From Escherichia phage HY01: DNA of 64,000 nucleotides. Location: the sequence record NC_027349.1; one strand, written 5' to 3'. The notes below the pieces were generated by a model. That model did no database searches. It was given only the letters and a program-made list of their open reading frames with translations, and had not been told where the DNA came from. The position numbers and the translations under genes are program-made. Positions 3,520 through 64,000 of the stretch are shown piece by piece; positions within the stretch are counted from its first letter, which is position 1; each line of letters starts with the position of its first letter.

Positions 3520-3543
3520 AATGAAGAAAGGGGCCGAAGCCCC
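3520..3543 (-). terminator. Hairpin terminator downstream of hoc (GGGGC-CGAA-GCCCC)
   Basis: Stem-loop at 3530-3543 followed on the minus strand by a U-rich tract. Confidence 0.5.
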
Positions 3544-3548
3544 TGATA

Positions 3549-4679
3549 TTATGGATAGGTATAGATGATACCAGTTTCTAAAGCAGTTTTATGAATGATG
3601 TATCCATTACGCGATTCTTGAACATCAACTTCTGGATAGTCTTTCATCATCTTCTGAAGAGTGTAACGATGCAAGTAGTACTTACTATCTGGGTCGTCAG
3701 TTTTCCAGTCTTTACCTTCTTCAGTCATTTTTTGGATTTCATCCATAACCCACCAACCGCACCAGATATAAGCTGAAGTACGATGTGGAAGAGGATGAAC
3801 ATAAGGTAATTCACCTTCTGGTTCCGGAGCAACTTTATCAGTTACCTGAACTTGACCTTCTGCTGTGATAGTTTTGCTATCATAATCAGTAGCGGTAACA
3901 GTTGCAGTAACTTCAATAGTTTGACTTCCAACAGATGAGGTATCGACAGTATATACGTTAGTTGACCCTTCTACAGGAGAAGAATCTTTCTTCCACGAGT
4001 AAGTAATTTGTGCTGCCTCAGGTGCGCCAGTAACATTAGCAGTAAATGTAGCCGAAGCATCTTGCTGAACATTAATAGAAGGAGGAGTCAATGTAACCTG
4101 TGGATTCATTGTCTTCTTATTAACAGTCAGTGATACTTCATTAGAAGTAACGCTCAGTGCATCATAATCTGCCGCGGTTACTTGAGCTACACACTTAATT
4201 TTTTTAACTCCGCTTGTAGTAGGAGTGTAATTGAATGTAGCACTAGTTGCTTCGCTCACAGGAGAACCATCTACATGCCACTGATACGTAGCAGATGCGC
4301 CTGATGGTTGAGAAGCTAAGGCAGCAGTAAATTGAACTGGGGTTCCAATTACTCCAGCAGCAGGACTAGCAGGAGTTACAGCTAAGGTAGTTGTCTGTGT
4401 CTTGTTTTGAACTGTGATAGTTGTAGTAGCTTCTGCTGTTTCAGCATCAGTATCTGGAACTGTGTTTGTTGCAACTACTTTAATAGTCTTTTGACCAGCA
4501 GGTCCTTTTAGTACATAACTAAAAGTTGCTTCAGTTCCATCTTGCGGAACATCGTCTACAGTCCAAGCATAGGTAATAGTTCCACCTCCAGTTTCACCAC
4601 TGGGTGTAGCAGTAAACTGCTGAGTCTGATCTATAACTCCAGTAGGGGTTTTAGGAGTTATATCAACTGTAAAAGCCAT
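3549..4679 (-). CDS. hoc: Hoc, highly immunogenic outer capsid decoration protein (Ig-like repeats)
   Basis: 376 aa, T/S/V-rich repetitive Ig-like sequence, C-terminal capsid-binding region; same length as T4 Hoc. Confidence 0.85.
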   Translation of the reverse strand: MAFTVDITPKTPTGVIDQTQQFTATPSGETGGGTITYAWTVDDVPQDGTEATFSYVLKGPAGQKTIKVVATNTVPDTDAETAEATTTITVQNKTQTTTLAVTPASPAAGVIGTPVQFTAALASQPSGASATYQWHVDGSPVSEATSATFNYTPTTSGVKKIKCVAQVTAADYDALSVTSNEVSLTVNKKTMNPQVTLTPPSINVQQDASATFTANVTGAPEAAQITYSWKKDSSPVEGSTNVYTVDTSSVGSQTIEVTATVTATDYDSKTITAEGQVQVTDKVAPEPEGELPYVHPLPHRTSAYIWCGWWVMDEIQKMTEEGKDWKTDDPDSKYYLHRYTLQKMMKDYPEVDVQESRNGYIIHKTALETGIIYTYP

Positions 4680-4688
4680 AAGTTATCC

Positions 4689-5369
4689 TTATTTTAATGT
4701 TACGAAAGAAGAGTTGCGTGTTTCACGAATTAGAACTGATCCGTCACGGTTAATGTAGTAAATTAAGCTAAATAAAGTTTGGTGTGCCGACGCGTGTTCA
4801 AAACTAGTTGGGTGAGATTTCCAATCCGGAGTTTCAGCAATCCACTGGTAAATCCACCAAGGAACAGTGCAGAATCCTGGATTTTTTCCAATCAGCTGAA
4901 GATTCGGACTAAAGTTTTCCGGAAGAGTAAATACAGACGGCTTTTCAGATTCAATAATCTCAGCTACGGCCTGCTCGAATTTTTCTTCAACAAAAGGAGT
5001 ATCTTCAATCAAAACATCGGTATTTTCAGGAATTTTATCCTTTTCTACTACTTCAATTTTAATGTCAGATTTAACCGGAGAATCAATCAGAAGTGCTGCT
5101 TCTGGATTGACTTCTTCATCGTCATATTTTAATCCTTCTGCAGCATCAGCAGCATTAATTAAGTCTTTAATAGATAACCCATCAGTCTCTGGCATAGGTT
5201 CACTAGCGAGCTTCTGGAGGGCTTCTTCAATATCAACAACGATATTATCAAAAGATTTATTCTTTTTGACCTTTATACCAAACTGTTCAGCATATTCAGC
5301 TAATTTAGCTTTAGCTTCTTTATTATCATCAAGAGCCTTCAGCTCTGCAATATAATCTTTATCTATCAT
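4689..5369 (-). CDS. inh: Inh, inhibitor of prohead protease gp21
   Basis: 226-aa ORF in the conserved position between hoc and uvsW. Confidence 0.75.
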   Translation of the reverse strand: MIDKDYIAELKALDDNKEAKAKLAEYAEQFGIKVKKNKSFDNIVVDIEEALQKLASEPMPETDGLSIKDLINAADAAEGLKYDDEEVNPEAALLIDSPVKSDIKIEVVEKDKIPENTDVLIEDTPFVEEKFEQAVAEIIESEKPSVFTLPENFSPNLQLIGKNPGFCTVPWWIYQWIAETPDWKSHPTSFEHASAHQTLFSLIYYINRDGSVLIRETRNSSFVTLK

Positions 5370-5382
5370 AATATTTCCTCAG

Positions 5383-5390
5383 TATAAATA
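5383..5390 (+). promoter_or_regulatory. Late promoter TATAAATA upstream of uvsW
   Basis: Exact TATAAATA 30 nt upstream of the uvsW ATG. Confidence 0.55.
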
Positions 5391-5419
5391 TAGATATATT
5401 TATTACATGGTATTTAGAC

Positions 5420-6931
5420 ATGACTGACATTAAAGTACATTTTTATGATTTTAGTCACGTGAGAATTGATTGTGAAGAAAGTACATTTCATGAACTCCGT
5501 GATTTCTTTAGCTTTGAAGCTGATGGGTATCGTTTTAATCCGAAGTACAAATATGGTCATTGGGATGGGCGAATCCGTCTTTTAGATTATAATCGACTTC
5601 TTCCATTCGGCTTAGTCGGGCAAATTAAAAAGTTCTGTGATAACTTTGGCTATAAAGCCTGGATTGACCCGCAGATTAACGAAAAAGAAGAATTATCAAG
5701 AAAAGATTTTGATGAATGGCTTTCTAAATTAGAAATCTATTCAGGAAATAAAAGAATTGAACCGCACTGGTATCAAAAAGATGCAGTGTTCGAAGGATTA
5801 GTTAATCGTCGTAGAATTCTTAATCTTCCAACATCCGCAGGTAAATCTTTAATTCAAGCTTTGCTTGCACGTTATTATTTGGAAAATTATGAAGGTAAAA
5901 TTCTTATCATTGTTCCAACAACTGCTCTGACAACTCAGATGGCTGATGACTTTGTTGACTATCGTTTATTCAGTCATGCAATGATAAAGAAAATCGGTGG
6001 TGGAGCATCAAAAGATGATAAATATAAAAATGATGCACCAGTAATTGTTGGTACATGGCAAACTGTAGTAAAACAACCAAAAGAATGGTTCTCGCAGTTT
6101 GGAATGATGATGAACGATGAATGCCATCTTGCCACAGGAAAAAGTATTTCATCTATCATATCAGGTTTAAATAACTGCATGTTCAAATTTGGTCTATCGG
6201 GTTCATTACGTGATGGCAAAGCTAATATCATGCAGTATGTTGGAATGTTTGGTGAAATATTTAAGCCAGTAACGACTTCTAAATTAATGGAAGATGGACA
6301 AGTAACTGAGTTAAAAATTAATAGTATTTTTCTTCGCTATCCTGATGAGTTCACTACTAAATTAAAGGGAAAAACTTACCAAGAAGAAATAAAAATTATT
6401 ACTGGGCTCAGTAAAAGAAATAAATGGATCGCTAAATTAGCTATTAAGCTTGCGCAAAAAGATGAAAACGCTTTTGTCATGTTTAAACATGTATCACATG
6501 GTAAAGCTATTTTCGATTTAATTAAAAATGAATACGATAAAGTTTATTACGTATCAGGGGAAGTTGATACCGAAACCCGCAATGTAATGAAAACCTTAGC
6601 TGAAAATGGTAAAGGAATAATTATAGTAGCTAGTTATGGTGTATTTTCTACTGGTATTTCAGTTAAAAATCTGCATCATGTTGTTTTAGCGCACGGTGTT
6701 AAATCTAAAATTATTGTATTGCAAACAATAGGTCGCGTATTACGTAAGCATGGTTCTAAAACAATCGCAACAGTCTGGGACCTCATAGATGATTGCGGTG
6801 TTAAGCCAAAATCTGCTAATACGAAAAAGAAATACGTTCATTTGAACTATCTTTTAAAACACGGCATTGATCGTATTCAGCGCTACGCAGATGAAAAATT
6901 TAATTACGTAATGAAAACAGTTAATTTATAA
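5420..6931 (+). CDS. uvsW: UvsW, SF2 DNA/RNA helicase for recombination and repair
   Basis: 503 aa; Walker A PTSAGKS and DECH box; near-identical to remembered T4 UvsW. Confidence 0.95.
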   Translation: MTDIKVHFYDFSHVRIDCEESTFHELRDFFSFEADGYRFNPKYKYGHWDGRIRLLDYNRLLPFGLVGQIKKFCDNFGYKAWIDPQINEKEELSRKDFDEWLSKLEIYSGNKRIEPHWYQKDAVFEGLVNRRRILNLPTSAGKSLIQALLARYYLENYEGKILIIVPTTALTTQMADDFVDYRLFSHAMIKKIGGGASKDDKYKNDAPVIVGTWQTVVKQPKEWFSQFGMMMNDECHLATGKSISSIISGLNNCMFKFGLSGSLRDGKANIMQYVGMFGEIFKPVTTSKLMEDGQVTELKINSIFLRYPDEFTTKLKGKTYQEEIKIITGLSKRNKWIAKLAIKLAQKDENAFVMFKHVSHGKAIFDLIKNEYDKVYYVSGEVDTETRNVMKTLAENGKGIIIVASYGVFSTGISVKNLHHVVLAHGVKSKIIVLQTIGRVLRKHGSKTIATVWDLIDDCGVKPKSANTKKKYVHLNYLLKHGIDRIQRYADEKFNYVMKTVNL

Positions 6932-6956
6932 GGGCTTCGGCCCTTTGGAGAAAAAG

Positions 6957-7187
6957 ATGTTACTAGAATTTAAACAATTTCTTTATGAAGCTTCTATTGA
7001 TGAATTTATGGGTAAAATTGCATCATGCCAAACATTAGAAGGTCTAGAAGAACTTGAAGCTTATTATAAGAAAAGAGTTAAAGAAACTGAATTAAAAGAT
7101 ACTGATGACATCTCTGTGAGAGATGCTTTGGCAGGAAAAAGAGCTGAATTAGAAGATTCAGACGATGAAGTAGAAGAAAGCTTTTAA
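6957..7187 (+). CDS. uvsW.1: UvsW.1 small acidic protein
   Basis: Track start at 6945 is TTG; in-frame ATG at 6957 with GGAG Shine-Dalgarno gives 76 aa, the T4 UvsW.1 length. Confidence 0.8.
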   Translation: MLLEFKQFLYEASIDEFMGKIASCQTLEGLEELEAYYKKRVKETELKDTDDISVRDALAGKRAELEDSDDEVEESF

Positions 7188-7242
7188 ATTAAAAAAGGCC
7201 CAACCAAAAAGGAAGGGCCAAAACTATAGACTAAAGGTCACA

Positions 7243-7410
7243 CTATAGCAAAAGTTGTGTTTCATTTAATTGTTCTTCCGAACTTTCTGAAACTGGTAGT
7301 TCTTTAATGTAATTATAACAAGGCCCAGGATGTACAGGACCTTTGTCTGTTTCAACAACCAATGCAGAATCGATTGGAGTTTTACAGACAACACAAATCT
7401 TATCTGACAT
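7243..7410 (-). CDS. uvsY.-2: Small Cys-containing protein (position of T4 uvsY.-2), 55 aa
   Basis: Not in the ORF track (<60 aa); hand translation MSDKICVVCKTPIDSALVVETDKGPVHPGPCYNY... with AGGAG Shine-Dalgarno 7 nt upstream. Confidence 0.6.
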   Translation of the reverse strand: MSDKICVVCKTPIDSALVVETDKGPVHPGPCYNYIKELPVSESSEEQLNETQLLL

Positions 7411-7438
7411 GATTGTCTCCTCTAAATTATATATCTAT

Positions 7439-7663
7439 TTATATAACTCTCATATGCATATCAATGCCCATATCTTTAGAATAAAAATATTCATCAAGAT
7501 ATCCGGCAAATTTTCCTTTAATATAAAGGACATCTTCACCGCATGGATGGTCGGCCAGGATACGAATATCCTGACGCTTGAGATTATACTTTTTCATTAA
7601 GAATTGAATTTCCGTTTCGAATTCTTCTTCATAATTAAAAGCATCATCAATGCTATATTTCAT
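7439..7663 (-). CDS. uvsY.-1: Hypothetical protein (position of T4 uvsY.-1)
   Basis: 74-aa ORF, stop overlaps the uvsY start region. Confidence 0.65.
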   Translation of the reverse strand: MKYSIDDAFNYEEEFETEIQFLMKKYNLKRQDIRILADHPCGEDVLYIKGKFAGYLDEYFYSKDMGIDMHMRVI

Positions 7664-14492: not shown

Positions 14493-15457
14493 TGTATTCT
14501 TTAGAGGAATTTAATAATCAAGCAATAAACGCAGATTTCCAGCGTAATAATATGTTTAGCTGCGTTTTTGCGACAACTCCATCAACTAAAAGCTCTTCGT
14601 TGATAAGTTCAATTAGCAACTTTTCTTATAATAACTTGGGCCTAAATTCAGATTGGTTAGGATTGACTCAAGGCGATATTAATCAGGGAATTACCACGCT
14701 AATTACCGCTGGCACACAAAAACTGATAAGAAAATCAGGGGTTAGTAAATATCTTATTGGTGCCATGAGTCAACGTACAGTTCAAAGTTTATTGGGCTCA
14801 TTTACAGTTGGTACATATTTAATTGACTTCTTTAATATGGCATATAATTCATCTGGATTGATGATATACTCTGTAAAAATGCCAGAGAATAGATTATCCT
14901 ATGAAACTGACTGGAACTATAATTCTCCTAATATTCGTATAACTGGGAGAGAATTAGACCCTTTGGTTATTTCATTTAGAATGGATTCAGAAGCTTGTAA
15001 CTATCGTGCGATGCAAGACTGGGTTAACGCTGTTCAAGACCCAGTAACTGGACTGCGTGCTTTGCCACAAGATGTCGAGGCAGATATTCAGGTTAATCTT
15101 CATGCTCGTAATGGATTACCTCATACTGCAGTGATGTTCACCGGATGCATTCCAGTGTCAGTGAGCGCTCCTGAGTTATCATATGATGGAGATAACCAAA
15201 TAACTACATTTGATGTTACTTTTGCGTATAGAGTCATGCAGGCTGGGTCGGTTGATAGACAAGCTGCGCTTGAGTGGCTTGAATCTGCTGCTATAAATGG
15301 CATTCAAAGCGTTCTCGGAAATAGTGGAGGTGTTACTGGATTATCTAATTCGCTTTCACGACTTAGTAGATTAGGGGGAACTGCTGGAAGCATTTCAAAC
15401 ATTAATACTATGACAGGAATTGTCAATTCGCAAAGTAAAATATTAGGAGCAATATAA
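14492..15457 (+). CDS. 54: Baseplate tail-tube initiator gp54
   Basis: 321 aa, conserved position. Confidence 0.85.
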   Translation: MYSLEEFNNQAINADFQRNNMFSCVFATTPSTKSSSLISSISNFSYNNLGLNSDWLGLTQGDINQGITTLITAGTQKLIRKSGVSKYLIGAMSQRTVQSLLGSFTVGTYLIDFFNMAYNSSGLMIYSVKMPENRLSYETDWNYNSPNIRITGRELDPLVISFRMDSEACNYRAMQDWVNAVQDPVTGLRALPQDVEADIQVNLHARNGLPHTAVMFTGCIPVSVSAPELSYDGDNQITTFDVTFAYRVMQAGSVDRQAALEWLESAAINGIQSVLGNSGGVTGLSNSLSRLSRLGGTAGSISNINTMTGIVNSQSKILGAI

Positions 15458-15461
15458 CAAT

Positions 15462-15491
15462 GGGGACCGAAAGGTCCCCATATTTTTATTT
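15462..15491 (+). terminator. Hairpin terminator after gene 54 (GGGGACC-GAAA-GGTCCCC plus T-run)
   Basis: Perfect 7-bp stem with GAAA loop followed by ATATTTTTATTT. Confidence 0.6.
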
Positions 15492-15776
15492 ACGGAATGA
15501 AATAAAAGCAGCAACTGAAGCAACTAAACTGTCTTCAATATAAACTTCAATTTTTACCGGAGCTTCTGACTCAAATTTACCTGTTACTACACCTTGGAAA
15601 ATGCTTTCAGTCTGTTCTGGCTTTGAAAAATTTTCAGAAGGAAAAATTCCGAACTTTTTATCTGTTCCAAAAATTTTGATAAATTCATCATAAACTGCTT
15701 CATTAAAAGCGTTATCAGCAGGAATAACGCCTTCAACTACAAGTTCTTGACCTAAAAAGCGTAAAGAAGATTTCAT
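15486..15776 (-). CDS. Hypothetical early protein (position of T4 alt.-3)
   Basis: 96-aa ORF with GAGG Shine-Dalgarno, directly downstream of an early promoter. Confidence 0.6.
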   Translation of the reverse strand: MKSSLRFLGQELVVEGVIPADNAFNEAVYDEFIKIFGTDKKFGIFPSENFSKPEQTESIFQGVVTGKFESEAPVKIEVYIEDSLVASVAAFISFRK

Positions 15777-15807
15777 TTTGTGTTCCTCATGTTATGTCAG
15801 TAAGATT

Positions 15808-15837
15808 ATTATAACACAACACGAGGGACTTGTAAAC
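15808..15837 (-). promoter_or_regulatory. T4-type early promoter (GTTTAC-N18-TATAAT)
   Basis: Minus-strand GTTTAC at 15837-15832 and TATAAT at 15813-15808; part of a ~55-bp repeat also found upstream of alc. Confidence 0.55.
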
Positions 15838-17894
15838 TACATCTTGAACTTTTTAGACATTCCGTTGATGTTAACCAAAGAAGCCAAGATTTGAGAAACT
15901 TCGTTTTCCTCTTCTTTTGATTCTTCTACAAGGAATTGATTAAACCCAGCCATTGGACGAACTTCACCAGTTTCCATTAGATGATCGCCATCATATACCG
16001 ATTCTTCTAATTGTTCAGAAGGAGGAACGATTGTGCCTTCAATTAGATACTTGTTATAAGCAGTTTCTTTCATCATGTACGTGCTTACTTTATTAATCTT
16101 CAACAAAATTCCACGCGGTAGAATAACTTCAGCTTCTGATGGAAATCCCGATAAATGACCTGGAACGATAACTTTGATTCGCTCAGCCCCTTTAATTACC
16201 ATACCTACGCTAGTTTCAGCATCTTCATTCGCATAAGCAGAATGACTGCCCATATGCATTAAATCTTCAGCATCAACAGAACCTTCTCCTTCACCAGAAA
16301 ATACTGCGCCGGAATCATCTAGAGCCATATAGTTTTTACCATGCTCACCGAAGATATTTGGTTTAAGCGATGTTGATACGAAGTTCTTGAAATAGAACAT
16401 TTTATTTTCAATATTATGGCGTAAAGTTTTAAAAGTAACTTCTTGTCCACGATAAAGCGTAGTTCCTGGAGGAAGAACTGAACCTTTGGCAAAGGCAGAA
16501 TCCAGCGTCTCGATGTGTTTAATAGCTCGTTCCATATATTCTTCACGGGTAGAATCTGGTTTACCCAAGAGGAACGAGTTCATTTCAACATATGAATCTG
16601 CACAATAATCTTCAATTACATCAGACTCAGCCTGAGTCAGTCCTTTTGGAGTTACTTCGGTGCTTGCGTATTCATATGCCTGAGCAGCAGATTCATTAAT
16701 CAATTTATAAATGCCATTCATGACAAATTGAATAATAGCTACCTTTTCGTCTGGCGTGGCTTTAGAACCTTTAACTAAATCATTGATAATTTTCTTAATA
16801 ACATCAAAGCTATTAGAAATATTAATGTCAGCGAGATCGCTCAAAATTTTATCGGTTTTATAATCAAAGAATTCTTTATTCTTTAAATATTCTTGAGAAC
16901 CTTGATGTGTTATATCGCTCTGCAGTCTGATAGACGGATCACGTAAACGTGCATGGGCCAATGCAATATGATTTCGGAAGCTTTCTAGTTCATAATCGTT
17001 AGATTTAAAACGAGAAGCACTTCTCATACCACCGATAGCTCCTTTACCGAAGTTTGAACCAATCTGAATAACGCCAGAGTTCATTGGTCCTTCTGCTTTA
17101 TATACCGGAACTTTAGATTCAAACTCTTGATATTTCTTAGCGGCAAAGCTATCACCCTGAAGCGAAGCATCGACAGTAGAATATTGAGCTTGCGCTGCTA
17201 ATCGACGACTAATTTTAGTTTTCTGAATAACAGCTTGATCCGTGCGCTTATCATTTTCTAAAGCAATAGAAGCGGCAACAGCAACAGCTTTAGGAACAGC
17301 ATTACCTGTTTTAACATCTACATAAACATCACCAACCTTTGATTCAACTTTTGTGAATAACTCAGTTGAAATAGGAGGTACACCTGGAATGTCTTCTAAA
17401 TTAGCATTTTTACGGTAAACCATAATATATGCGTACTTTTTATCGTAATCCCAGATTTCCTTTAAAAGAACATATCGACCTGCTCCTTTAGTACGTACTA
17501 AACGGTCGGCAATAACTTGCATTTGACGAGCTGCACCATTTGTTTTACTCTTTAGTACGCGGAATAAGCATGCGTCAATTTTGTATTGTTTCATTGTCTG
17601 AAGAGCAGTATCAAAAACCGCATTAATGACACCAATTGGATTTCCACCCAAGTTTTTAAGTTTAACTAATGATAGTTTCTCATTAACACCTATCATTACG
17701 ATATGCATCATTTTATCGCCTGGCTTAACGTTTTTATTTGTATCACCGCCAGAGGTGTATGTACAAAATCTAAATCCAGGAAGCACGCTTTCTTCACCGG
17801 CTTGAATAGCAAAAATTTGAGGTATTTTATGCTTAGGATTTAAGTTAACAACCGGCGCCGAAGCGCCGTCAAATAATTCTGTAATAAGTTCCAT
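15837..17894 (-). CDS. Alt-like ADP-ribosyltransferase paralogue
   Basis: 685 aa; N-terminal ~200 aa closely parallel Alt (MELITELFD...); C-terminal domain has R (YRGQ), STS (FVSTSL) and EAEVILPRG motifs; start 3 nt after the alt stop. Confidence 0.75.
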   Translation of the reverse strand: MELITELFDGASAPVVNLNPKHKIPQIFAIQAGEESVLPGFRFCTYTSGGDTNKNVKPGDKMMHIVMIGVNEKLSLVKLKNLGGNPIGVINAVFDTALQTMKQYKIDACLFRVLKSKTNGAARQMQVIADRLVRTKGAGRYVLLKEIWDYDKKYAYIMVYRKNANLEDIPGVPPISTELFTKVESKVGDVYVDVKTGNAVPKAVAVAASIALENDKRTDQAVIQKTKISRRLAAQAQYSTVDASLQGDSFAAKKYQEFESKVPVYKAEGPMNSGVIQIGSNFGKGAIGGMRSASRFKSNDYELESFRNHIALAHARLRDPSIRLQSDITHQGSQEYLKNKEFFDYKTDKILSDLADINISNSFDVIKKIINDLVKGSKATPDEKVAIIQFVMNGIYKLINESAAQAYEYASTEVTPKGLTQAESDVIEDYCADSYVEMNSFLLGKPDSTREEYMERAIKHIETLDSAFAKGSVLPPGTTLYRGQEVTFKTLRHNIENKMFYFKNFVSTSLKPNIFGEHGKNYMALDDSGAVFSGEGEGSVDAEDLMHMGSHSAYANEDAETSVGMVIKGAERIKVIVPGHLSGFPSEAEVILPRGILLKINKVSTYMMKETAYNKYLIEGTIVPPSEQLEESVYDGDHLMETGEVRPMAGFNQFLVEESKEEENEVSQILASLVNINGMSKKFKM

Positions 17895-17897
17895 GAT

Positions 17898-19991
17898 TTA
17901 TCCTTGAACGAACTTGTAAGGCATGTTTGTAATATCTATGCAAGACGCAATAATTCCGAGAGATGATTCTGCTTTCTGTTTAACATTTGATGAAACAAAT
18001 GATGCAAAGTCAACTCTGTCTTCTATTTCAATATCACCTGTCATTGCAACTACTTCGCCGGTTTCCATTAAACGGTCACCGTCATAAATTACTGATTCGG
18101 TGAGTTCTTCCGTAGTCATAACTTCAGCTTGAATGAGTTTTGTATTATTAGATGTTGTTCCGTCATTATTAGAAGCATCAGTTATTTTATTAACTTTGAC
18201 CATCAATCCGCGTGGTAGAATAACTTCAGCTTCTGTTGCTATTCCGAGACTTCCTGGATATACAACATTAACTTTATGAGCTCCATCAATTGCCCATCCT
18301 ATTTGAACTTTAACGTATTCAGGATTTTCTTTATACGCTCTTATTTCGTTTGGATTAATAGTTATTCCTTCTTCATTTTTATCAACTGTCAATTCATTAC
18401 GAGCTTCTGGTTCTAAAAGACCAATACCAGCATGTGTAATTCCAAAACGTCCAAAAATGATAGGAGTTAAAGAAGTAGATACAAAATTTCTGAAATAGAA
18501 TACTTTATTTTTAACTAGTGCTTCGTATATAGGAGCAGTCATACTTTGAGCACGATAAACTGTAATGCCTTCTGGTATACGGTCGCCATTTTCAAAAGCT
18601 GAATCTAAGTTATTTATAGCAGATTCAATTTCTTTTTCACTCATTACATCATATCGTTCTGGATTGTAGCGTCCTAAAAGAAGATTATTGATGTCAGTAT
18701 ATCCTGAACCGCAATACTCTCTAATGCCACGCTTTTGTGATGGAGTATATTTAGAACCATCACGGGCAATAGTAATATCAATCATTGGACCTGCACCAAT
18801 TCCAGAAAAACTATAAATCATTCTTTTGAGGAATTTAGTTTTTGCTGCGTTCCAGGAATTTTTAGTTATTTCTTCCCAGACTTCATCTGGCTGTCCTTTA
18901 CGGGTTTTATTATGTTTATCAAGCCAATTATCTTTATATTCTTCAAAGAGTTGATTAACAGCTGCTGCGTATTTCTCTAAACATTTTATTGAAGTAGTTG
19001 GTTCATTTTTAATCGCATTAAGAATTACATCTTTAATTTTTTCAGAAACTTCATTAACCTCACTTTTTGAAAAGAATTTATAATCATAGTGAAGTTCATC
19101 TGCAGTTCCTTCGGCAATAATTTTTGCTGTCTTAGTTTTAGAAGCTAATGAATTAATTCCAAGTTTCATTTCTTCTGCTTCAGGAATTAAAGGAGCTGTA
19201 GCATGTTTATTAAAATTGGCTGCGGTAGATTCATACTTCTGGAATAATTCGCTTTCAAATCTAGAAGATTCTAATGACTGGCTTTGTGCAATTGCTCTAC
19301 GGGAAATTTTAACTTTAACGATTACAGCTTGGTCAGAACGTTTATCATTTTCTTGTGCAATAGATGCTGCAATTGCCTCATTTTTAGTTACTTGAGCTCC
19401 GGTATCTTTATTGATATAAACATCACCGACCTTCGATTCAACTTTAGTAAAGAGCTCGGTACTAATTTCCGGAACTCCTGGAATGTCTTCTAGTGATACA
19501 TTTTTGCGATGTATAAGAATATATGCATACTTTTTATCATAATCCCAGAGTTCCTTAAGAAGGACGTATCTGCCACCTGAACGACTACGGATAAGTCTAT
19601 CAGCAATAACTTGAATTTGTCGAGCTTGACCAGCAGTTTTAGACTTAAGAATACGAAGCATGCAGGCATCAATTTTATACTGACGCATCGTCTGCATTGC
19701 AACAGTAAAAACTGAATTGATGTAATTAATTGGACTTGGACCGAGACCTTTTAATTTAGCAATTGAACCTTTAGCAGTTAGTGTAAAAGGAACAATGTGC
19801 ATCATTTTATCGCCCATCTTTAAATCGCGATTAGTATCACCTCCAGATGTATAGGTACATAAACGAAAGCCTGGTTGTTCAATTGCGTCATCAACATGAA
19901 CTGAAAAAATTTGTGGTATTTTCTTCTTTGGATTTAAGTTTGTAATCGGAAGAGTAGTATCTTCGTCAAATAATTCTGTAATAAGTTCCAT
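17898..19991 (-). CDS. alt: Alt ADP-ribosyltransferase (capsid-packaged RNA polymerase modifier)
   Basis: N-terminus MELITELFDEDTTLPITNL... matches remembered T4 Alt; ART motifs YRAQ / FVSTSL / EAEVILPRG; second ATG chosen as start. Confidence 0.9.
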   Translation of the reverse strand: MELITELFDEDTTLPITNLNPKKKIPQIFSVHVDDAIEQPGFRLCTYTSGGDTNRDLKMGDKMMHIVPFTLTAKGSIAKLKGLGPSPINYINSVFTVAMQTMRQYKIDACMLRILKSKTAGQARQIQVIADRLIRSRSGGRYVLLKELWDYDKKYAYILIHRKNVSLEDIPGVPEISTELFTKVESKVGDVYINKDTGAQVTKNEAIAASIAQENDKRSDQAVIVKVKISRRAIAQSQSLESSRFESELFQKYESTAANFNKHATAPLIPEAEEMKLGINSLASKTKTAKIIAEGTADELHYDYKFFSKSEVNEVSEKIKDVILNAIKNEPTTSIKCLEKYAAAVNQLFEEYKDNWLDKHNKTRKGQPDEVWEEITKNSWNAAKTKFLKRMIYSFSGIGAGPMIDITIARDGSKYTPSQKRGIREYCGSGYTDINNLLLGRYNPERYDVMSEKEIESAINNLDSAFENGDRIPEGITVYRAQSMTAPIYEALVKNKVFYFRNFVSTSLTPIIFGRFGITHAGIGLLEPEARNELTVDKNEEGITINPNEIRAYKENPEYVKVQIGWAIDGAHKVNVVYPGSLGIATEAEVILPRGLMVKVNKITDASNNDGTTSNNTKLIQAEVMTTEELTESVIYDGDRLMETGEVVAMTGDIEIEDRVDFASFVSSNVKQKAESSLGIIASCIDITNMPYKFVQG

Positions 19992-20014: not shown

Positions 20015-20022
20015 TATTTATA
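20015..20022 (-). promoter_or_regulatory. Late promoter (TATAAATA on minus strand) upstream of alt
   Basis: Plus-strand TATTTATA at 20015-20022, about 24 nt upstream of the alt ATG. Confidence 0.5.
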
Positions 20023-23953: not shown

Positions 23954-23993
23954 AGTATTTTCCTCAGTAAGGGGCCGAAGCCCCTGTTTTATT

Positions 23994-24359
23994 TTAAATA
24001 TCAAATTCGTTAAGAACTACATCAAAGATTGCTTCAAGATGCTCAGGTTTAGCTCTGTTACTCAAAATATGACGAATCCAAGTTTTAACCAGAAGCTTAC
24101 GATTGACGCCATTCCAGCAAGGATGAGTACCTAAATCACGTTGACGGAAATCATCATCCAGAGCGATTTTGAAGTTGGAGCCTTCCATTGTGATTGAAAC
24201 CGTGATGCCATTTTCAAATCGCATATAAACGTAGTTAGGAGTCATATACTGTTCAATTTCGCATACTGATCCATTTTGATGTTTCCAAAGGCAAATAGTA
24301 TCAATAGAACCTGCAATACCATTAGAAACATATTTACGTTCAAAGTTGATGTAGTTCAT
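23994..24359 (-). CDS. Hypothetical protein
   Basis: Track start is TTG; ATG at 24359 with GGAGA Shine-Dalgarno gives 121 aa. Confidence 0.55.
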   Translation of the reverse strand: MNYINFERKYVSNGIAGSIDTICLWKHQNGSVCEIEQYMTPNYVYMRFENGITVSITMEGSNFKIALDDDFRQRDLGTHPCWNGVNRKLLVKTWIRHILSNRAKPEHLEAIFDVVLNEFDI

Positions 24360-24786: not shown

Positions 24787-24816
24787 ATACTATCACAAAG
24801 GAACTATACTGTAAAC
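24787..24816 (-). promoter_or_regulatory. T4-type early promoter (GTTTAC-N18-TAGTAT)
   Basis: Minus-strand GTTTAC at 24816-24811 with a -10-like hexamer 18 nt downstream. Confidence 0.45.
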
Positions 24817-24837
24817 AACTTTGTGCAATCTTTGGAA

Positions 24838-24865
24838 AATAAAAAAGGACTCCCGAAGGAGTCCT
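24838..24865 (-). terminator. Hairpin terminator (GGACTCC-CGAA-GGAGTCC)
   Basis: Perfect stem with tetraloop and a U-run on the minus strand, directly after the 24870 ORF stop. Confidence 0.55.
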
Positions 24866-24869
24866 CAAC

Positions 24870-25088
24870 TTATGCTTTCTGCTTACCAAAACGAGAAGCA
24901 TCATCTCGAAGAACCGCACGTGCTCGGCGCATGATCTTCTCAACAGTTTGATTGATACGAGAGTTCGACCCACGCTTGTAACCAGCGCGTTTAGAATCAC
25001 CAACTTTCTTTTCAACTGCTTTCTTTGCTTTAGCTTGTTTTGCCATTATAAATTCTCTTTTAAATGAAAATGCAGGACTTATTGGCAT
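24870..25088 (-). CDS. Small highly basic protein (Lys/Arg-rich; possible nucleic-acid binder)
   Basis: 72-aa ORF with ATG at 25088; alternative ATG at 25046 would give 58 aa; start not resolved. Confidence 0.5.
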   Translation of the reverse strand: MPISPAFSFKREFIMAKQAKAKKAVEKKVGDSKRAGYKRGSNSRINQTVEKIMRRARAVLRDDASRFGKQKA

Positions 25089-30651: not shown

Positions 30652-31001
30652 TTAGAAAGGTCCTGGATGTCTTCTGCGAACTTGTTGAAGGAGTTGTTGA
30701 TTTGTTTTTCAACCAATCCTGGCTTATGAGCCACCACATCCGCCTTCTTTGCATCTTTGCGCAGTTTTTCATTTTCACGCTCAATAGCAGCAATTGCCTC
30801 ACGATTTTTATTATTCATCGCATCAATATAATTATACTGAATTCGCAAATTATTTAATGCTAAAGCGTTTTCATTGGCCGTTTTTGTAATTTCTACAACA
30901 GACGTTTCTAATCTTTCAATTTTATTTTTTAAAATTAAAGAAGTTCCGCCCAATGCAATTACAATTAATAACAAGCCTGTTGTCGTATTACTTAATTGCA
31001 T
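30648..31001 (-). CDS. pseT.3: Inner-membrane spanin component, i-spanin (Rz equivalent)
   Basis: 117 aa; N-terminal TM helix (LLLIVIALGGTSLIL) then coiled-coil-like sequence; adjacent to the lipoprotein ORF. Confidence 0.6.
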   Translation of the reverse strand: MQLSNTTTGLLLIVIALGGTSLILKNKIERLETSVVEITKTANENALALNNLRIQYNYIDAMNNKNREAIAAIERENEKLRKDAKKADVVAHKPGLVEKQINNSFNKFAEDIQDLSK

Positions 31002-31495
31002 AAAGTTTTAATAACCTCTATAATATCGTCTTGAGAAAGACCGTTAATTAAAATATGATGTTCAGCCGGAGATTTAGAAATTTTAAAGCATGCCTCAACA
31101 TCTTCTGCCATATCCGATGCGCTACGATTTGGATTACTAATTCCAAGACGATGTTTTCCCGTTAAAGGATTAACGATGATATAGCATTTACAGTTATTAA
31201 TATGAACATTAGGTTGAGTCTGATTAATGAATACATCACAATCATATTTCGCAAGCTGATTTTCTAAAAAGACTTTCATCTCCTCAACTGCATCAGGAAG
31301 CATATCACGGGCTTGCTCAAGACGACGATTTCGATATTCTTTAATGGTCGTTTTCCGCTTGACTTGCTTAGCTAAATCTTTCTTAAGATCGGTGATATAT
31401 CCAACTCGACGATTTCCTTTAAATACAGAAATCCCATCTGTAGTATCACCGTATGCTTCAACGACCATCTCAGTAGTAATAAGCTGCAAATCCAT
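30992..31495 (-). CDS. alc: Alc, terminates transcription on cytosine-containing DNA
   Basis: 167 aa, same as T4 Alc; directly downstream of an early promoter. Confidence 0.8.
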   Translation of the reverse strand: MDLQLITTEMVVEAYGDTTDGISVFKGNRRVGYITDLKKDLAKQVKRKTTIKEYRNRRLEQARDMLPDAVEEMKVFLENQLAKYDCDVFINQTQPNVHINNCKCYIIVNPLTGKHRLGISNPNRSASDMAEDVEACFKISKSPAEHHILINGLSQDDIIEVIKTLCN

Positions 31496-31526
31496 TATAA
31501 AGTCCTCATGTTATGTCAGTAAGACT

Positions 31527-31556
31527 ACTATAACACAACACGAGGGACTTGTAAAC
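31527..31556 (-). promoter_or_regulatory. T4-type early promoter for alc (GTTTAC-N18-TATAGT)
   Basis: Part of a ~55-bp near-identical copy of the promoter/leader at 15783-15837. Confidence 0.55.
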
Positions 31557-31559
31557 AGC

Positions 31560-33147
<1,588 letters not shown>

Positions 33148-40844: not shown

Positions 40845-40869
40845 TTTATTCTCCTTAGTTGATAGGGTA

Positions 40870-40899
40870 ATAGTATCACACTACTACCCTGTTGTAAAC
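40870..40899 (-). promoter_or_regulatory. T4-type early promoter (GTTTAC-N18-TACTAT)
   Basis: Member of the conserved GATAGGGTAA...GTAAAC cassette family. Confidence 0.45.
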
Positions 40900-41300
40900 T
40901 ACTTTTTGAAAGTTTTTCGCAAAAGTTCAATGATTTCATCTACATTGTTTTCGTCTACAATGCAGTGAATTTTTGTTACGCCAGAAATCTTGTCTTCGAC
41001 TTCATCTTCTTCAGAAGTCGGTTCTTTATACTCGCGGAAACAATAAAACTCTTCTTCACTAAGTTCAAAATAATCATCACCCATGCCATCATCATTATAG
41101 ATTTCGCCATTAGCACAAATGATTTCAGTTACATAATCAAAGCCATCTAAATTTGATATTGATTTAACTTCAAACCAACCACCATTTTCTTGAATGATGC
41201 CGACCATATTAGCATTTGATGAACTAATATCAATGAAAGATTTAATACGATGTGGATTTAACTCATATTTTTTGCCGATTTCCATTTTGATTTTCCTCAT
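40899..41300 (-). CDS. Hypothetical acidic protein
   Basis: 133-aa ORF with GAGGA Shine-Dalgarno; Asp/Glu-rich C-terminal half. Confidence 0.55.
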   Translation of the reverse strand: MRKIKMEIGKKYELNPHRIKSFIDISSSNANMVGIIQENGGWFEVKSISNLDGFDYVTEIICANGEIYNDDGMGDDYFELSEEEFYCFREYKEPTSEEDEVEDKISGVTKIHCIVDENNVDEIIELLRKTFKK

Positions 41301-41558: not shown

Positions 41559-41601
41559 ATTGTTTTCCTCTTTAATCATCAGCAGTATTGCCGATAGTTG
41601 T

Positions 41602-41631
41602 ATAGTACCATAGTCCTTGTGGTATGTAAAC
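41602..41631 (-). promoter_or_regulatory. T4-type early promoter (GTTTAC-N18-TACTAT)
   Basis: Cassette nearly identical to those at 58292-58321 and 61936-61965. Confidence 0.5.
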
Positions 41632-41650
41632 TGTTTTGTGAAAAAATTTT

Positions 41651-41680
41651 AAAATAAAAAAGGGGACCTCTAGGGTCCCC
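41651..41680 (-). terminator. Rho-independent terminator after gene 32 (GGGGACC-CTAGA-GGTCCCC)
   Basis: 7-bp GC-rich stem followed on the minus strand by TTTTTTATTTT. Confidence 0.6.
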
Positions 41681-58250: not shown

Positions 58251-58291
58251 TTTCTAATCTCCGTAATTCTATATCAGTAGTTGATAGTTGT

Positions 58292-58321
58292 ATAGTACCA
58301 CAGTATGCTTTGGTTGTAAAC
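58292..58321 (-). promoter_or_regulatory. T4-type early promoter for motA (GTTTAC-N18-TACTAT)
   Basis: Cassette immediately downstream of a terminator, upstream of motA. Confidence 0.5.
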
Positions 58322-58342
58322 CGTTTTGTGAAAAAATTTTTG

Positions 58343-58372
58343 AAATAAAAAAGGGAGAGCCTCAGCTCTCCC
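58343..58372 (-). terminator. Rho-independent terminator (GGGAGAGC-CTCA-GCTCTCCC plus U-run)
   Basis: Perfect 8-bp stem; minus-strand T-run follows. Confidence 0.6.
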
Positions 58373-61401: not shown

Positions 61402-61429
61402 TTTCTGTTCCTCCGTAGTTGATAGGGTA

Positions 61430-61459
61430 ATAATACCACGGAAGAACAGTCTTGTAAAC
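61430..61459 (-). promoter_or_regulatory. T4-type early promoter (GTTTAC-N18-TATTAT)
   Basis: Cassette family member; followed by GGAGG and the ATG at 61401. Confidence 0.45.
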
Positions 61460-61466
61460 AACTTTT

Positions 61467-61565
61467 TTAAAAATATTCGTAATAAATGTGAATACCAACT
61501 ACTACCGCTGAAACCTGTGCAACCCACCACGCACAAGCAATAAGTACAGAATTCAAAATTTTCAT
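61467..61565 (-). CDS. Hydrophobic micro-protein (32 aa)
   Basis: Not in the track; hand-translated MKILNSVLIACAWWVAQVSAVVVGIHIYYEYF with GAGG Shine-Dalgarno; ATG overlaps the preceding ORF stop. Confidence 0.35.
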   Translation of the reverse strand: MKILNSVLIACAWWVAQVSAVVVGIHIYYEYF

Positions 61566-61908: not shown

Positions 61909-61935
61909 TTTCCGCTCCTCCGTAGCTGATAGAGT

Positions 61936-61965
61936 ATAGTACCACGGTCCTTGTGGTATGTAAAC
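61936..61965 (-). promoter_or_regulatory. T4-type early promoter (GTTTAC-N18-TACTAT)
   Basis: Cassette nearly identical to 41602-41631 and 58292-58321. Confidence 0.5.
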
Positions 61966-61981
61966 TGTTTTGTGAAAATTT

Positions 61982-62539
61982 TTAAATGGAAAGATACCAT
62001 CCGTTGTAGTTGCTTTTTCTTACAACCTTACGAAGGTCTTCTCTATCACCGATGAACTTCGGAGTGTACTGGATGACACCTGGATGAATTTCTTTAGTGT
62101 TGAATATAATTATACAGTCAGCGACTTGATGATTCAGAATGGGCCCTAGATTTATTCCAGAACCGTATGGATACTCTCCGCTGCATCCGGTTGTTACCGA
62201 AATCCAACGTGAGTCAGTTTGATGTGTTTTGACTTCTACACGAAGCCCGCAGTATTTTGGATGTGCCAATACATCCCATGCGTATGTATACGGGTCATTA
62301 ACATCCTCTTGGCCTTTGTTAACATATCCGCTTAGCCAATCTGCTACAAAAAACTCTGCGTACACCGCGATACGGCATCTTTCGATAACTTCTGCTTTAT
62401 CCTGATTTGGATTTTGTTTTAAAGAGTATCTTGCTGTATCAGCAATTTTGACCTTCATTTCACTAGTCAAGTCACTGTTCGATAGGGTAAATGTCGGAAT
62501 CTGAAATAGTCTCTGTAAACCCGGATTCGTTTTCTGCAT
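61982..62539 (-). CDS. denB: Endonuclease IV
   Basis: 185 aa as in T4 EndoIV; conserved position next to rIIB. Confidence 0.8.
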   Translation of the reverse strand: MQKTNPGLQRLFQIPTFTLSNSDLTSEMKVKIADTARYSLKQNPNQDKAEVIERCRIAVYAEFFVADWLSGYVNKGQEDVNDPYTYAWDVLAHPKYCGLRVEVKTHQTDSRWISVTTGCSGEYPYGSGINLGPILNHQVADCIIIFNTKEIHPGVIQYTPKFIGDREDLRKVVRKSNYNGWYLSI

Positions 62540-62801: not shown

Positions 62802-62838
62802 AATTTCTCTTAAAACAAAAGGGCCGAAGCCCCTCATT

Positions 62839-63033
62839 TTATTTGAATTGTGCAATTCTTTTTTCTAAACAATCTGCGTAAGATTTCATTGAGATGAACT
62901 GTGAAAGCAGTAATTCTTGTTCAACTTCATTAATCGTTAGAAACTTTGTGCTTTCTAAAAATTTGCTCAGTGCATTAATTTTGAGCATTAATTGATCGTA
63001 TTCTTCTTTTACTCGTGCTTGATAACCTAACAT
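62839..63033 (-). CDS. Hypothetical small protein
   Basis: 64-aa ORF between rIIB and a GGGCCGAAGCCCC hairpin. Confidence 0.5.
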   Translation of the reverse strand: MLGYQARVKEEYDQLMLKINALSKFLESTKFLTINEVEQELLLSQFISMKSYADCLEKRIAQFK

Positions 63034-63061
63034 AATTTTCCTTAGTTAAGGGCCGAAGCCC

Positions 63062-64000
63062 TTATTTAAATTGTTCAGTAACGTCTTCAACTACTTCGTA
63101 TTGACAGGTACGCATTTTAGCATCGTTGTAATCAATCGGAATTGATACTACATCGCGAGGATGTACTTTAACTTTTACAACTCGGCTGGTTGAACTGCCA
63201 AAGTGACGAATATAAGATTTAGAACACACATGCAGACCACGAGAACAAGTTTGTGTATCATCGTCATTCACACGAGTACGTGGCATTTTAACTACTTTAC
63301 CAGGACTGTTATCAAAGGTGTTTGAGTGACAGTCAAAGTAGTTGTCACGAACTACTTTCCAAGCATAGAAGTAACCATCTTCTGTAATTTCAATATCGTT
63401 TGCTACCAAGAAATCAAAGAGTCGAGATACCGCTTTCTGGCTTGGGTTTTCCAGCAGATTTTCCAAGAACGGAAAATAAAACTCAAAGTTTTCACCTTTT
63501 TCCATCGAATCGAGAATACGATCAACTAAACCAGATCGTAATTCGATATTTTGATAGAACAAGCTTCCGCCTTCAATTCGAACATCGCCGGAAATATATT
63601 TTTCAACAGCGCGACGAACATTAATTTTTTGTGCCGCTTCTTCCAACTTATCTGCTACAAGCAGATTAAGAATTTCCTGGAAGTTTGAATGAGTATTAGG
63701 AGTTGCGTTATAAGTTACACCGTCAACAGTAATTGAAATGAATTTTTTAGATGCATTCCAAATAATGTCAGATTTAGCAACTGGAGCAATAACTGCATCG
63801 CTATTAACTTTAACTGTAATATCACCGCTAATAGTAACTTTAGAGCGTTTAGCTTCTTCAGCATTTTTCAAAACACGACGAATTGTGTCAACCGATACAC
63901 CTTGCCAATCAGCCAATTCCTGTTGGGTGTAATTACCGCTTGAATACAATTTAACAATTTCAGCTTGTTCGTTTTTGGTCAGGCATTTAATATTGTACAT
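63062..64000 (-). CDS. rIIB: rIIB membrane-associated rapid-lysis protein
   Basis: 312 aa, MYNIKCLTKNEQAEIVKLYSSGNYTQQELADWQGVSVDTIRRVLK matches remembered T4 rIIB; ATG is the last three bases of the window. Confidence 0.9.
   Translation of the reverse strand: MYNIKCLTKNEQAEIVKLYSSGNYTQQELADWQGVSVDTIRRVLKNAEEAKRSKVTISGDITVKVNSDAVIAPVAKSDIIWNASKKFISITVDGVTYNATPNTHSNFQEILNLLVADKLEEAAQKINVRRAVEKYISGDVRIEGGSLFYQNIELRSGLVDRILDSMEKGENFEFYFPFLENLLENPSQKAVSRLFDFLVANDIEITEDGYFYAWKVVRDNYFDCHSNTFDNSPGKVVKMPRTRVNDDDTQTCSRGLHVCSKSYIRHFGSSTSRVVKVKVHPRDVVSIPIDYNDAKMRTCQYEVVEDVTEQFK

Follow-up and report, generated by a model that had tools for sequence, protein, structure and literature searches.

An early-promoter cassette shared by alc and alt.-3 in a T4-like phage carries a predicted hairpin that may gate translation

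Two near-identical early-promoter cassettes were found upstream of the genes alt.-3 and alc in the 64,000-nt stretch of Escherichia phage HY01 DNA analysed here (NC_027349.1, referred to below as the window). Our comparisons of sequences and predicted RNA folds lead us to favor, with moderate confidence, a single explanation for the pair, in which each cassette combines an early promoter with a hairpin that would occlude the Shine-Dalgarno sequence on transcripts started farther upstream, and in which the cassette at alt.-3 arose by gene conversion from that at alc.

The initial annotation had described two 55-bp stretches differing at three positions, and this was confirmed. A search of the window with the 55-mer, allowing up to 3 mismatches, returned exactly two sites (0 and 3 mismatches; 52 of 55 positions identical), both on the minus strand and with no third copy, and no match was obtained in 100 dinucleotide-preserving shuffles of the window, which rejects chance as the source of the pair. 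The same pair was recovered by repeat finding as family D9 (52/54 identical, spacing 15719). Genes here are encoded on the minus strand, so the cassettes are to be read as the reverse complement of the plus-strand coordinates; the sites originally given for them are correct, but their orientation needed correction. The elements of the two cassettes and of the surrounding units are as follows.

15783–15837, minus strand: cassette copy 1, from the stop codon of the second alt-like gene (TAG, 15837–15839) to alt.-3
15831–15836, minus strand: copy 1 -35 hexamer TTTACA from the promoter scan (GTTTAC at 15832–15837)
15814–15826, minus strand: copy 1 5' arm CCUCGUGUUGUGU, inside the promoter spacer
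15808–15813, minus strand: copy 1 -10 hexamer TATAAT, with a putative start near 15801 (A) placed by spacing only
15785–15797, minus strand: copy 1 3' arm ACAUAACAUGAGG, including the Shine-Dalgarno GAGG (15785–15788)
15486–15776, minus strand: alt.-3, 96 aa, Pfam DUF5498, the gene served by copy 1
15460–15481, both strands: bidirectional terminator-like hairpin after alt.-3, closing the unit
20015–20022, minus strand: late-promoter motif TATAAATA, following closely on a terminator hairpin, with the alt ATG about 20 nt farther on
31502–31556, minus strand: cassette copy 2, from the rnlA (gene 63) stop (TAA, 31560–31562) to alc
31550–31555, minus strand: copy 2 -35 hexamer TTTACA from the promoter scan
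31533–31545, minus strand: copy 2 5' arm CCUCGUGUUGUGU
31527–31532, minus strand: copy 2 -10 hexamer TATAGT, with a putative start near 31520 (A) placed by spacing only
31504–31516, minus strand: copy 2 3' arm ACAUAACAUGAGG, including the Shine-Dalgarno GAGG (31504–31507)
30992–31495, minus strand: alc, 167 aa, Pfam ALC (PF17527), the gene served by copy 2

Each cassette fills the whole intergenic gap. The alt-like TAG overlaps GTTTAC in copy 1, the rnlA TAA lies 3 nt ahead of GTTTAC in copy 2, and in both the ATG follows 8–9 nt past GAGG. Read from 15837 down to 15783, copy 1 consists of GTTTAC AAGTCCCTCGTGTTGTGT TATAAT AATCTTACTGACATAACAT GAGGA A, and copy 2 (31556 down to 31502) departs from it at three sites, with TATAGT, AGT and a final C. 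The first base of the -35 GTTTAC is also the first of the identity, which stops one base past GAGGA and has unrelated flanks on either side. Pfam matches to DUF5498 and PF17527 agreed with the downstream genes named originally, a 96-aa ORF and alc. The segment 14000–34000 of the window matches Escherichia phage PEC04 (KR233165.1, genus Tequatrovirus) at 100%.

An early promoter, a leader and a Shine-Dalgarno sequence had been claimed for each copy, and the promoter scans support this, with TTTACA-17-TATAAT in copy 1 (11/12) and TTTACA-17-TATAGT in copy 2 (10/12), both with an extended -10 TG. Of the features expected of a T4-type sigma-70 early promoter, the -35 element, the 17±1 nt spacer, TAnnnT and TGn are found in both. 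The T4 early "uber" promoters of the UP/-35/TGn/-10 type (Hinton 2010, PMC2988021) have the same GTTTAC/TTTACA, 17-nt spacer, TGn and TAnnnT, and like the two cassettes they stand directly ahead of immediate-early genes. By eye, an AAAAA is found upstream of the -35 element of copy 1 at about -49 to -53, within the alt coding sequence, and an A/T-rich stretch is found in copy 2 only past about -56. No promoter feature is annotated at either site in the T4 GenBank and RefSeq records, and a search of the accessible literature gave no transcript 5' ends, structure probing or translation results for the two sites, nor any genome-wide set of T4 transcription starts.

An extended consensus, reaching past the -35 and -10 boxes, is common to T4 early promoters (PMC2988021). 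The 12 early promoters of GTTTAC type that the window has on its minus strand were compared in one 55-nt frame: the two cassettes agree at 52 of 55 positions, the runner-up pair at 40 and typical pairs at 30–36. The cassette pair is therefore a clear outlier even among T4 early promoters, in agreement with the earlier proposal that the identity exceeds the needs of a promoter. Membership in the early-promoter class alone accounts neither for the identity of spacer and leader nor for the complementarity between them. That proposal had missed a hairpin of 13–17 bp, which would place a second constraint on the same spacer and leader.

The hairpin is formed by a 13-bp inverted repeat in each cassette, in which CCUCGUGUUGUGU in the promoter spacer is complementary to ACAUAACAUGAGG in the leader, two of the pairs being G.U. 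In copy 2, at alc, further pairing (AAGUCC / GGACUU) with a single bulged C can lengthen the stem on its outer side to about 17 bp. Within the loop are the -10 box and the putative start, and the 3' arm ends in GAGG. Read-through RNA across copy 1 is predicted to fold at -24.9 kcal/mol (z -5.1) and that across copy 2 at -27.0 kcal/mol (z -3.6), with 0 of 200 shuffles as stable in either case and with all four Shine-Dalgarno bases (4/4) paired with the spacer. Because the 5' arm lies within the promoter spacer, upstream of the -10 box, RNA initiated at the promoter would lack this arm and could not form the hairpin; the predicted leaders, starting about 7 nt past the -10 box, fold at only -2.2 and -4.1 kcal/mol, no better than shuffles.

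The stems do not resemble intrinsic terminators. A U-tract after the stem is absent in both copies, as it is in all nine genera described below, the downstream sequence being A-rich (tails AACACAAAAUG and CUUUAUAAUG), and the terminator scan called no terminator-like site at either cassette; on these two grounds this reading is disfavored. A known RNA family was rejected as well, as an Rfam search gave no family match at either cassette at E ≤ 1.

Conservation of the arrangement at alc was examined in rnlA-alc spacers taken from phages whose Alc proteins are 33–60% identical. A GTTTAC-type promoter before alc, with a spacer that pairs with the leader and Shine-Dalgarno sequence, was found in nine genera: Tequatrovirus, Dhakavirus (VR5, WG01, UGJNEcP4), Marfavirus, Gelderlandvirus (Melville), Karamvirus (EnC15), Jiaodavirus (KPN6), Bragavirus (SdyM006), Winklervirus (Vettismorki) and Roskildevirus (FBB1). 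The arm pairs are unlike between genera, for example AUCUCCGUUU / AAACGGAGAU, CCUCGUUUGUU / AACAAACGAGG and ACCUCUCAUUUUU / GAAAAUGAGAGGU. Because a MAFFT alignment of the cross-genus alc cassettes left the stems out of register, covariation was assessed by a matrix of spacer-by-leader duplex energies with a permutation test, using 10 phages from the nine genera (two of them from Dhakavirus, with WG01 left out). Spacers paired with leaders of their own genome gave a mean of -19.3 kcal/mol, versus -10.7 kcal/mol for pairs across genomes, and none of 20,000 permutations reached the observed own-pair mean.

Two exceptions at alc indicate that the putative gate is not universal, since their hairpins fall short of the Shine-Dalgarno sequence: in Mosigvirus (RB69, NHEP10) the hairpin is confined to the spacer, and in Providencia phage PSTCR6 it encloses the -10 box but not the Shine-Dalgarno sequence. 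In Gaprivervirus an additional ORF stands between rnlA and alc, and more distant phages also are without the arrangement. The additional small ORF of Gaprivervirus is annotated as similar to Alc (VR26 locus 14796–15029, vB_EcoM_RZ locus 1–237) and is accompanied by a promoter-like region of its own and by a GGGG...CCCC hairpin resembling a terminator; alc itself has no promoter directly upstream.

Within Tequatrovirus, the alleles sampled came from genome, IMG/VR and metagenome sequences. Eight of the 13 stem pairs are invariant, four vary on one side with pairing kept (C-G to U.G, G.U to A-U, A-U to G.U and G-C to G.U), and the outermost is broken in one sequence. No double compensatory changes were seen within the genus, only one-sided ones; the same was true of the few loci returned by the pattern scans (five in each IMG/VR scan and 10 in the metagenome scan), and only six close relatives of Alc were found in IMG/VR. 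As G.U pairs correspond to C.A mismatches on the other strand, the variation fits an RNA structure on the sense strand, although on its own it is weak evidence for the hairpin.

The history of the two copies was examined by comparing both loci across phages. A blastn search with the 67-nt cassette against 50,697 phage records matched 998 places in 501 records, about two per genome and all T4-like; the presence of two copies per genome across these 501 records rejects an assembly artefact. T4 has both copies, before alt.-3 and alc, with a difference at a single base, and in the genome, IMG/VR and metagenome sample the modal alt.-3 allele and the modal alc allele are identical at 54 of 54 positions. 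Outside Tequatrovirus the alt.-3 locus looks different. In six other genera (RB69, Melville, VR5, Marfa, VR26, EnC15) the GTTTAC promoter is present at alt.-3, but the spacer has no more than a short hairpin of its own, of the CAC...GUG type, and the Shine-Dalgarno sequence is free; duplex energies of spacer and leader at alt.-3 are -20.7 to -23.5 kcal/mol for Tequatrovirus versus -5.3 to -8.2 kcal/mol for those six genera. The layout that pairs with the Shine-Dalgarno sequence is found at alc in nine genera but at alt.-3 in Tequatrovirus alone, and the cassette at alt.-3 therefore most likely arose from that at alc by conversion.

In the sequence of events that we propose, the gate would be ancestral at alc, and the alc cassette would have overwritten the spacer and leader of alt.-3 in the Tequatrovirus ancestor by gene conversion. 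The tract would have been bounded by motifs already common to both cassettes, GTTTACA and ...ACATGAGGA; the alt.-3 cassettes of the other genera carry GTTTACA at their start and ...ACATGAGGA at the end of their leader, which are the exact boundaries of identity in the window and in PEC04. Drift since then would amount to 0–3 substitutions between the copies, mostly pairing-preserving. A separate conversion is directly visible in Dhakavirus sequences. VR5, WG01 and UGJNEcP4 have one and the same cassette at alt.-3, while the alc leader of VR5 is unlike those of WG01 and UGJNEcP4 and has 32 nt identical to VR5's own alt.-3 leader, indicating a recent event in the opposite direction, from alt.-3 to alc. 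Taken together, the two events suggest that conversion between these cassettes occurred at least twice, in opposite directions.

The initial annotation had suggested recent gene conversion or a cassette able to seed recombination. Conversion is supported by the unlike alt.-3 spacers outside Tequatrovirus and by VR5, but "recent" has to be taken as earlier than the radiation of the whole genus, because both copies are present in about 500 genomes. Ongoing homogenization within Tequatrovirus is unsupported, as the alt.-3 variant GTTCCTTATG is found in PST, ECML-134 and Sf21, whose alc copies are consensus. Conversions between the copies are indicated; no indel, mini-circle or rearrangement between them was seen in related genomes, the 20-kb region being collinear in 447 records. 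The essential genes 30 and 31 lie between the copies, so that a deletion between these direct repeats would remove both.

Outside Tequatrovirus, the closest match among cassettes is between other pairs, with 50 of 62 positions identical in Melville and in Marfa. Because the most similar pairs differ between genera, exchange between early-promoter cassettes looks like a general property rather than one peculiar to alc and alt.-3. The locus coordinates of these pairs are 5986/6931 in Melville, 7116/8602 in Marfa and 7159/8149 in EnC15, and the cassettes at Melville 5986 and EnC15 7159 have an 11-bp stem, CUCCGUUGUAU / AUACAACGGAG, that sequesters the Shine-Dalgarno sequence.

From the precedent of the T4 genes e, soc, 49 and I-TevI, we infer that the hairpin serves as a gate on translation. 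Transcripts started at the cassette's own promoter, at about 15801 and 31520, would begin with an unstructured leader of about 25 nt in which GAGG is free, and alt.-3 and alc would be translated right after infection. Transcripts started upstream would hold both arms and fold in vivo into the hairpin of 13–17 bp, burying the Shine-Dalgarno sequence and blocking the 30S subunit. Such read-through RNA would reach alt.-3 in late alt transcripts and would reach alc in early or middle transcripts through nrdA, nrdB, denA and rnlA. Translation of both genes would be tied to the early promoter and would end when early promoters shut off, limiting synthesis of Alc and Alt.-3 to the immediate-early period. 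One point against the gate is that the outer part of the stem might be opened to some extent by ribosomes that terminate 0–3 nt ahead of GTTTAC.

Sources for such read-through are predicted at both loci. The motif TATAAATA at 20015–20022 is the likely origin of late read-through RNA into copy 1; a late motif before alt fits the packaging of Alt in the phage head (PMC2988021), and since no minus-strand terminator-like site lies between this promoter and copy 1, late alt transcripts should run into alt.-3. Upstream of alc are the early promoters at 40899 and 41631 and the mapped T4 middle promoters PnrdA, PnrdB and PI-TevIII (PMC2988021, Table 1), and only weak, chance-level terminator matches are found between these promoters and alc. 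A sequence upstream of rnlA (32700–32745, minus strand), GATGCTTCCA-N12-TGgTACTAT, resembles a MotA-box middle promoter for rnlA; it is absent from the published table of T4 middle promoters and, if active, would be a further source of read-through into alc.

In the T4 genes e, soc, 49 and I-TevI, a promoter inside an inhibitory hairpin gives rise to short, translatable transcripts, and a review of post-transcriptional control in T4 gives only these four genes, together with seg/mob genes, as structure-gated (PMC3014915). The cassettes described here would share with them a Shine-Dalgarno sequence held in a helix on long transcripts (predicted in our case), transcripts from the gene's own promoter that lack the 5' arm, and conservation of the structure in related phages. 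The embedded promoter of the four T4 genes is a late one, and a late gene is kept silent on early transcripts, whereas at alc and alt.-3 an early promoter is embedded and an early gene would be silent on later read-through, a mirror image of the known arrangement. Since it is an early sigma-70 promoter that is embedded, not the late TATAAATA, the cassettes are better regarded as a variant than as strict members of this type. A wider reading, in which the early-promoter cassettes of Tevenvirinae form a family of "transcribe-here-or-stay-silent" gates, genes such as alc are held to the immediate-early burst, and conversion can carry this logic as a whole to an unrelated gene, is put forward tentatively, as possible with the balance slightly against it.

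The cassettes also belong to a described class, the promoter-early stem-loop (PeSL) cassettes of T4-type phages (Arbiol et al. 2010, PMC2839356; Comeau et al. 2014, PMC4122927). A PeSL is intergenic, comprises a stop codon, an early promoter with an overlapping stem-loop, a Shine-Dalgarno sequence and an ATG, is repeated in the genome, and was proposed as a linker for homologous recombination, so that the idea of seeding is already published; the papers give TTTACW-N17-TAYWAT as the T4/PST early-promoter consensus and refer to analogous elements at T-even internal-protein loci (Repoila et al. 1994, cited therein). Both cassettes have this structure, running from stop codon to ATG with an early promoter that fits the consensus, a stem of 13–17 bp and the -10 box in the loop. 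Further likenesses are that the cassette is repeated, that its copies appear to exchange sequence by homologous recombination, and that copy 1 lies beside a plastic locus, the extra alt paralogs numbering none in PST, a partial one in T4, one in PEC04 and two in WG01. There are two differences. The published role of PeSLs is termination or attenuation (PMC2839356, PMC4122927), whereas occlusion of the Shine-Dalgarno sequence is proposed here; the 2010 paper (PMC2839356) does not mention translation or the ribosome in its text, nor are alc and alt.-3 named in that of the 2014 paper (PMC4122927). The recombination described for PeSLs consists of insertion, deletion and mini-circles between nearby elements, whereas the copies here are 13.7–15.7 kb apart across essential genes and the outcome would be conversion, not rearrangement.

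The published role raises the alternative that the stem-loop is a PeSL-type terminator or attenuator that insulates the downstream early gene and has no specific role in translation. When Arbiol et al. 2010 (PMC2839356) inserted the stem-loop of a PeSL upstream of lacZ, behind a promoter, expression fell about as much as with rrnB T1, and stem-loops between or overlapping the -35 and -10 boxes are described there; the stems here are also strong (-21 to -27 kcal/mol). Yet the lacZ read-out is blind to the difference between termination and Shine-Dalgarno occlusion, the stems lack a U-tract and are followed by A-rich sequence, the terminator scan was empty, and the 3' arm always ends on the Shine-Dalgarno sequence, for which a terminator offers no reason; we regard this alternative as unlikely. 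Another possibility, to which we assign a still smaller chance, is that the hairpin is an element of RNA processing or stability, either protecting the 3' end of the alt or rnlA message or serving as an RNase III-type cleavage site between the cistrons. A stem of 13–17 bp directly past the upstream stop codon in both copies would suit such a role, and T4 mRNAs are heavily processed (PMC3014915). A 3'-protective hairpin need not take in the downstream Shine-Dalgarno sequence, however, and it does so in nine genera, and no Rfam family was matched. Typical RNase III substrates are longer than a stem of 13–17 bp, which counts against a cleavage site.

It is also conceivable, if very improbable, that the inverted repeat acts in DNA, as the site of a dimeric regulator of early promoters, as a cruciform or as a recombination hotspot, with the identity of the copies reflecting a shared site. 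Nearly all of the 12 early promoters compared in the window have some inverted repeat, the mechanism by which T4 early promoters are shut off is unknown (PMC2988021), and a recombination protein that binds the stem-loop was a speculation of Arbiol et al. (PMC2839356). Against this, the arms are wholly unlike between promoters and between genera, so that they could not be read by any one sequence-specific protein, and pairing at the two G.U positions and after the pair-preserving transitions holds in the sense RNA alone, the other strand having C.A mismatches there. Least credible, with hardly any probability in our judgment, is that no conversion took place and that two strong promoters converged under selection for promoter strength alone. 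The extended consensus of T4 early promoters (PMC2988021) and the 36–40 shared positions of 55 reached by other promoter pairs in the window lend it something, but here 52–54 of 54–55 positions are identical, across the whole spacer and 19 nt of leader, versus 30–40 of 55 elsewhere; moreover, the spacer found at alt.-3 in six other genera is a different one, and in VR5 a conversion is seen directly.

The cassette class and its recombinogenic nature are already published. In the searchable literature, older subscription work aside, no description was found of occlusion of the Shine-Dalgarno sequence by a promoter spacer, of deep conservation of the hairpin at alc, or of the direction of copying from alc to alt.-3. 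The pair provides a concrete, dated case in which regulatory sequence moved between unrelated genes of T4-like phages by conversion and not by gene shuffling. With the proposed gate, alc, and by copying alt.-3, would be added to the few T4 genes in which RNA structure couples translation to one particular promoter, and if the gate works, it would partly explain why synthesis of immediate-early proteins stops despite continued middle and late transcription from upstream. Our analysis also raises the possibility that, among the PeSL stem-loops reported to be terminators, some affect translation. For annotation and phage engineering, the whole intergenic spacer of about 60 bp may be functional, and altering the promoter spacer would be predicted to alter translation. 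The cassettes amount to a neat, testable point of regulation within the most thoroughly studied family of phages, not to a new kind of system.

Several other features of the window and of related genomes were noted. The number of alt paralogs beside copy 1 (window 15837–19991; T4 locus 5066–7503) is not constant: PST and ECML-134 have one, T4 has one and the fragments alt.-1 and alt.-2, PEC04, Sf21 and VR5 have two, and WG01 has three. The repeat families D1, D7, D11 and D16 are paralogous alt sequences. The last 14 nt ahead of copy 1 are the same, save for one A/G difference, in all Tequatrovirus genomes examined.

Two further minus-strand cassettes have the same architecture with unrelated sequence. 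In that at 61459 (-35 start), CUGUUCUUCCGUGG pairs with CUACGGAGGAACAG at -22.7 kcal/mol and 5/5 Shine-Dalgarno bases are paired; in that at 24816, before a gene 30.8 homologue, UCCUUUGU pairs with ACAAAGGA. Just upstream of the latter early promoter, a weak Rfam match to the Rhizobiales sRNA Atu_C8 (24831–24914, minus strand; 31.4 bits versus a gathering threshold of 50, E = 0.006) is most likely due to chance. The stems of the cassettes at 40899, 28232 and 24424 enclose only the -10 box, and those at 41631 and 61965 are confined to the spacer.

Two early-promoter repeat families with 70–80% similarity were also found, D2 (41593–41666, 58283–58356 and 61927–62000) and D3 (40851–40922, 58273–58344 and 61411–61482), in which the similarity reaches upstream of the -35 box into A/T-rich sequence and does not extend down into the leader. 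Finally, two families of GC-rich hairpins with near-identical copies and GNRA-like loops, GGGGCCGAAGCCCC and GGGACCGAAAGGTCCC (repeat families D6, D10 and D12), recur at 3524–3552, 23957–23994, 62806–62843 and 63035–63072, and at 1943–1989 and 15463–15509; they are probably shared intrinsic terminators.
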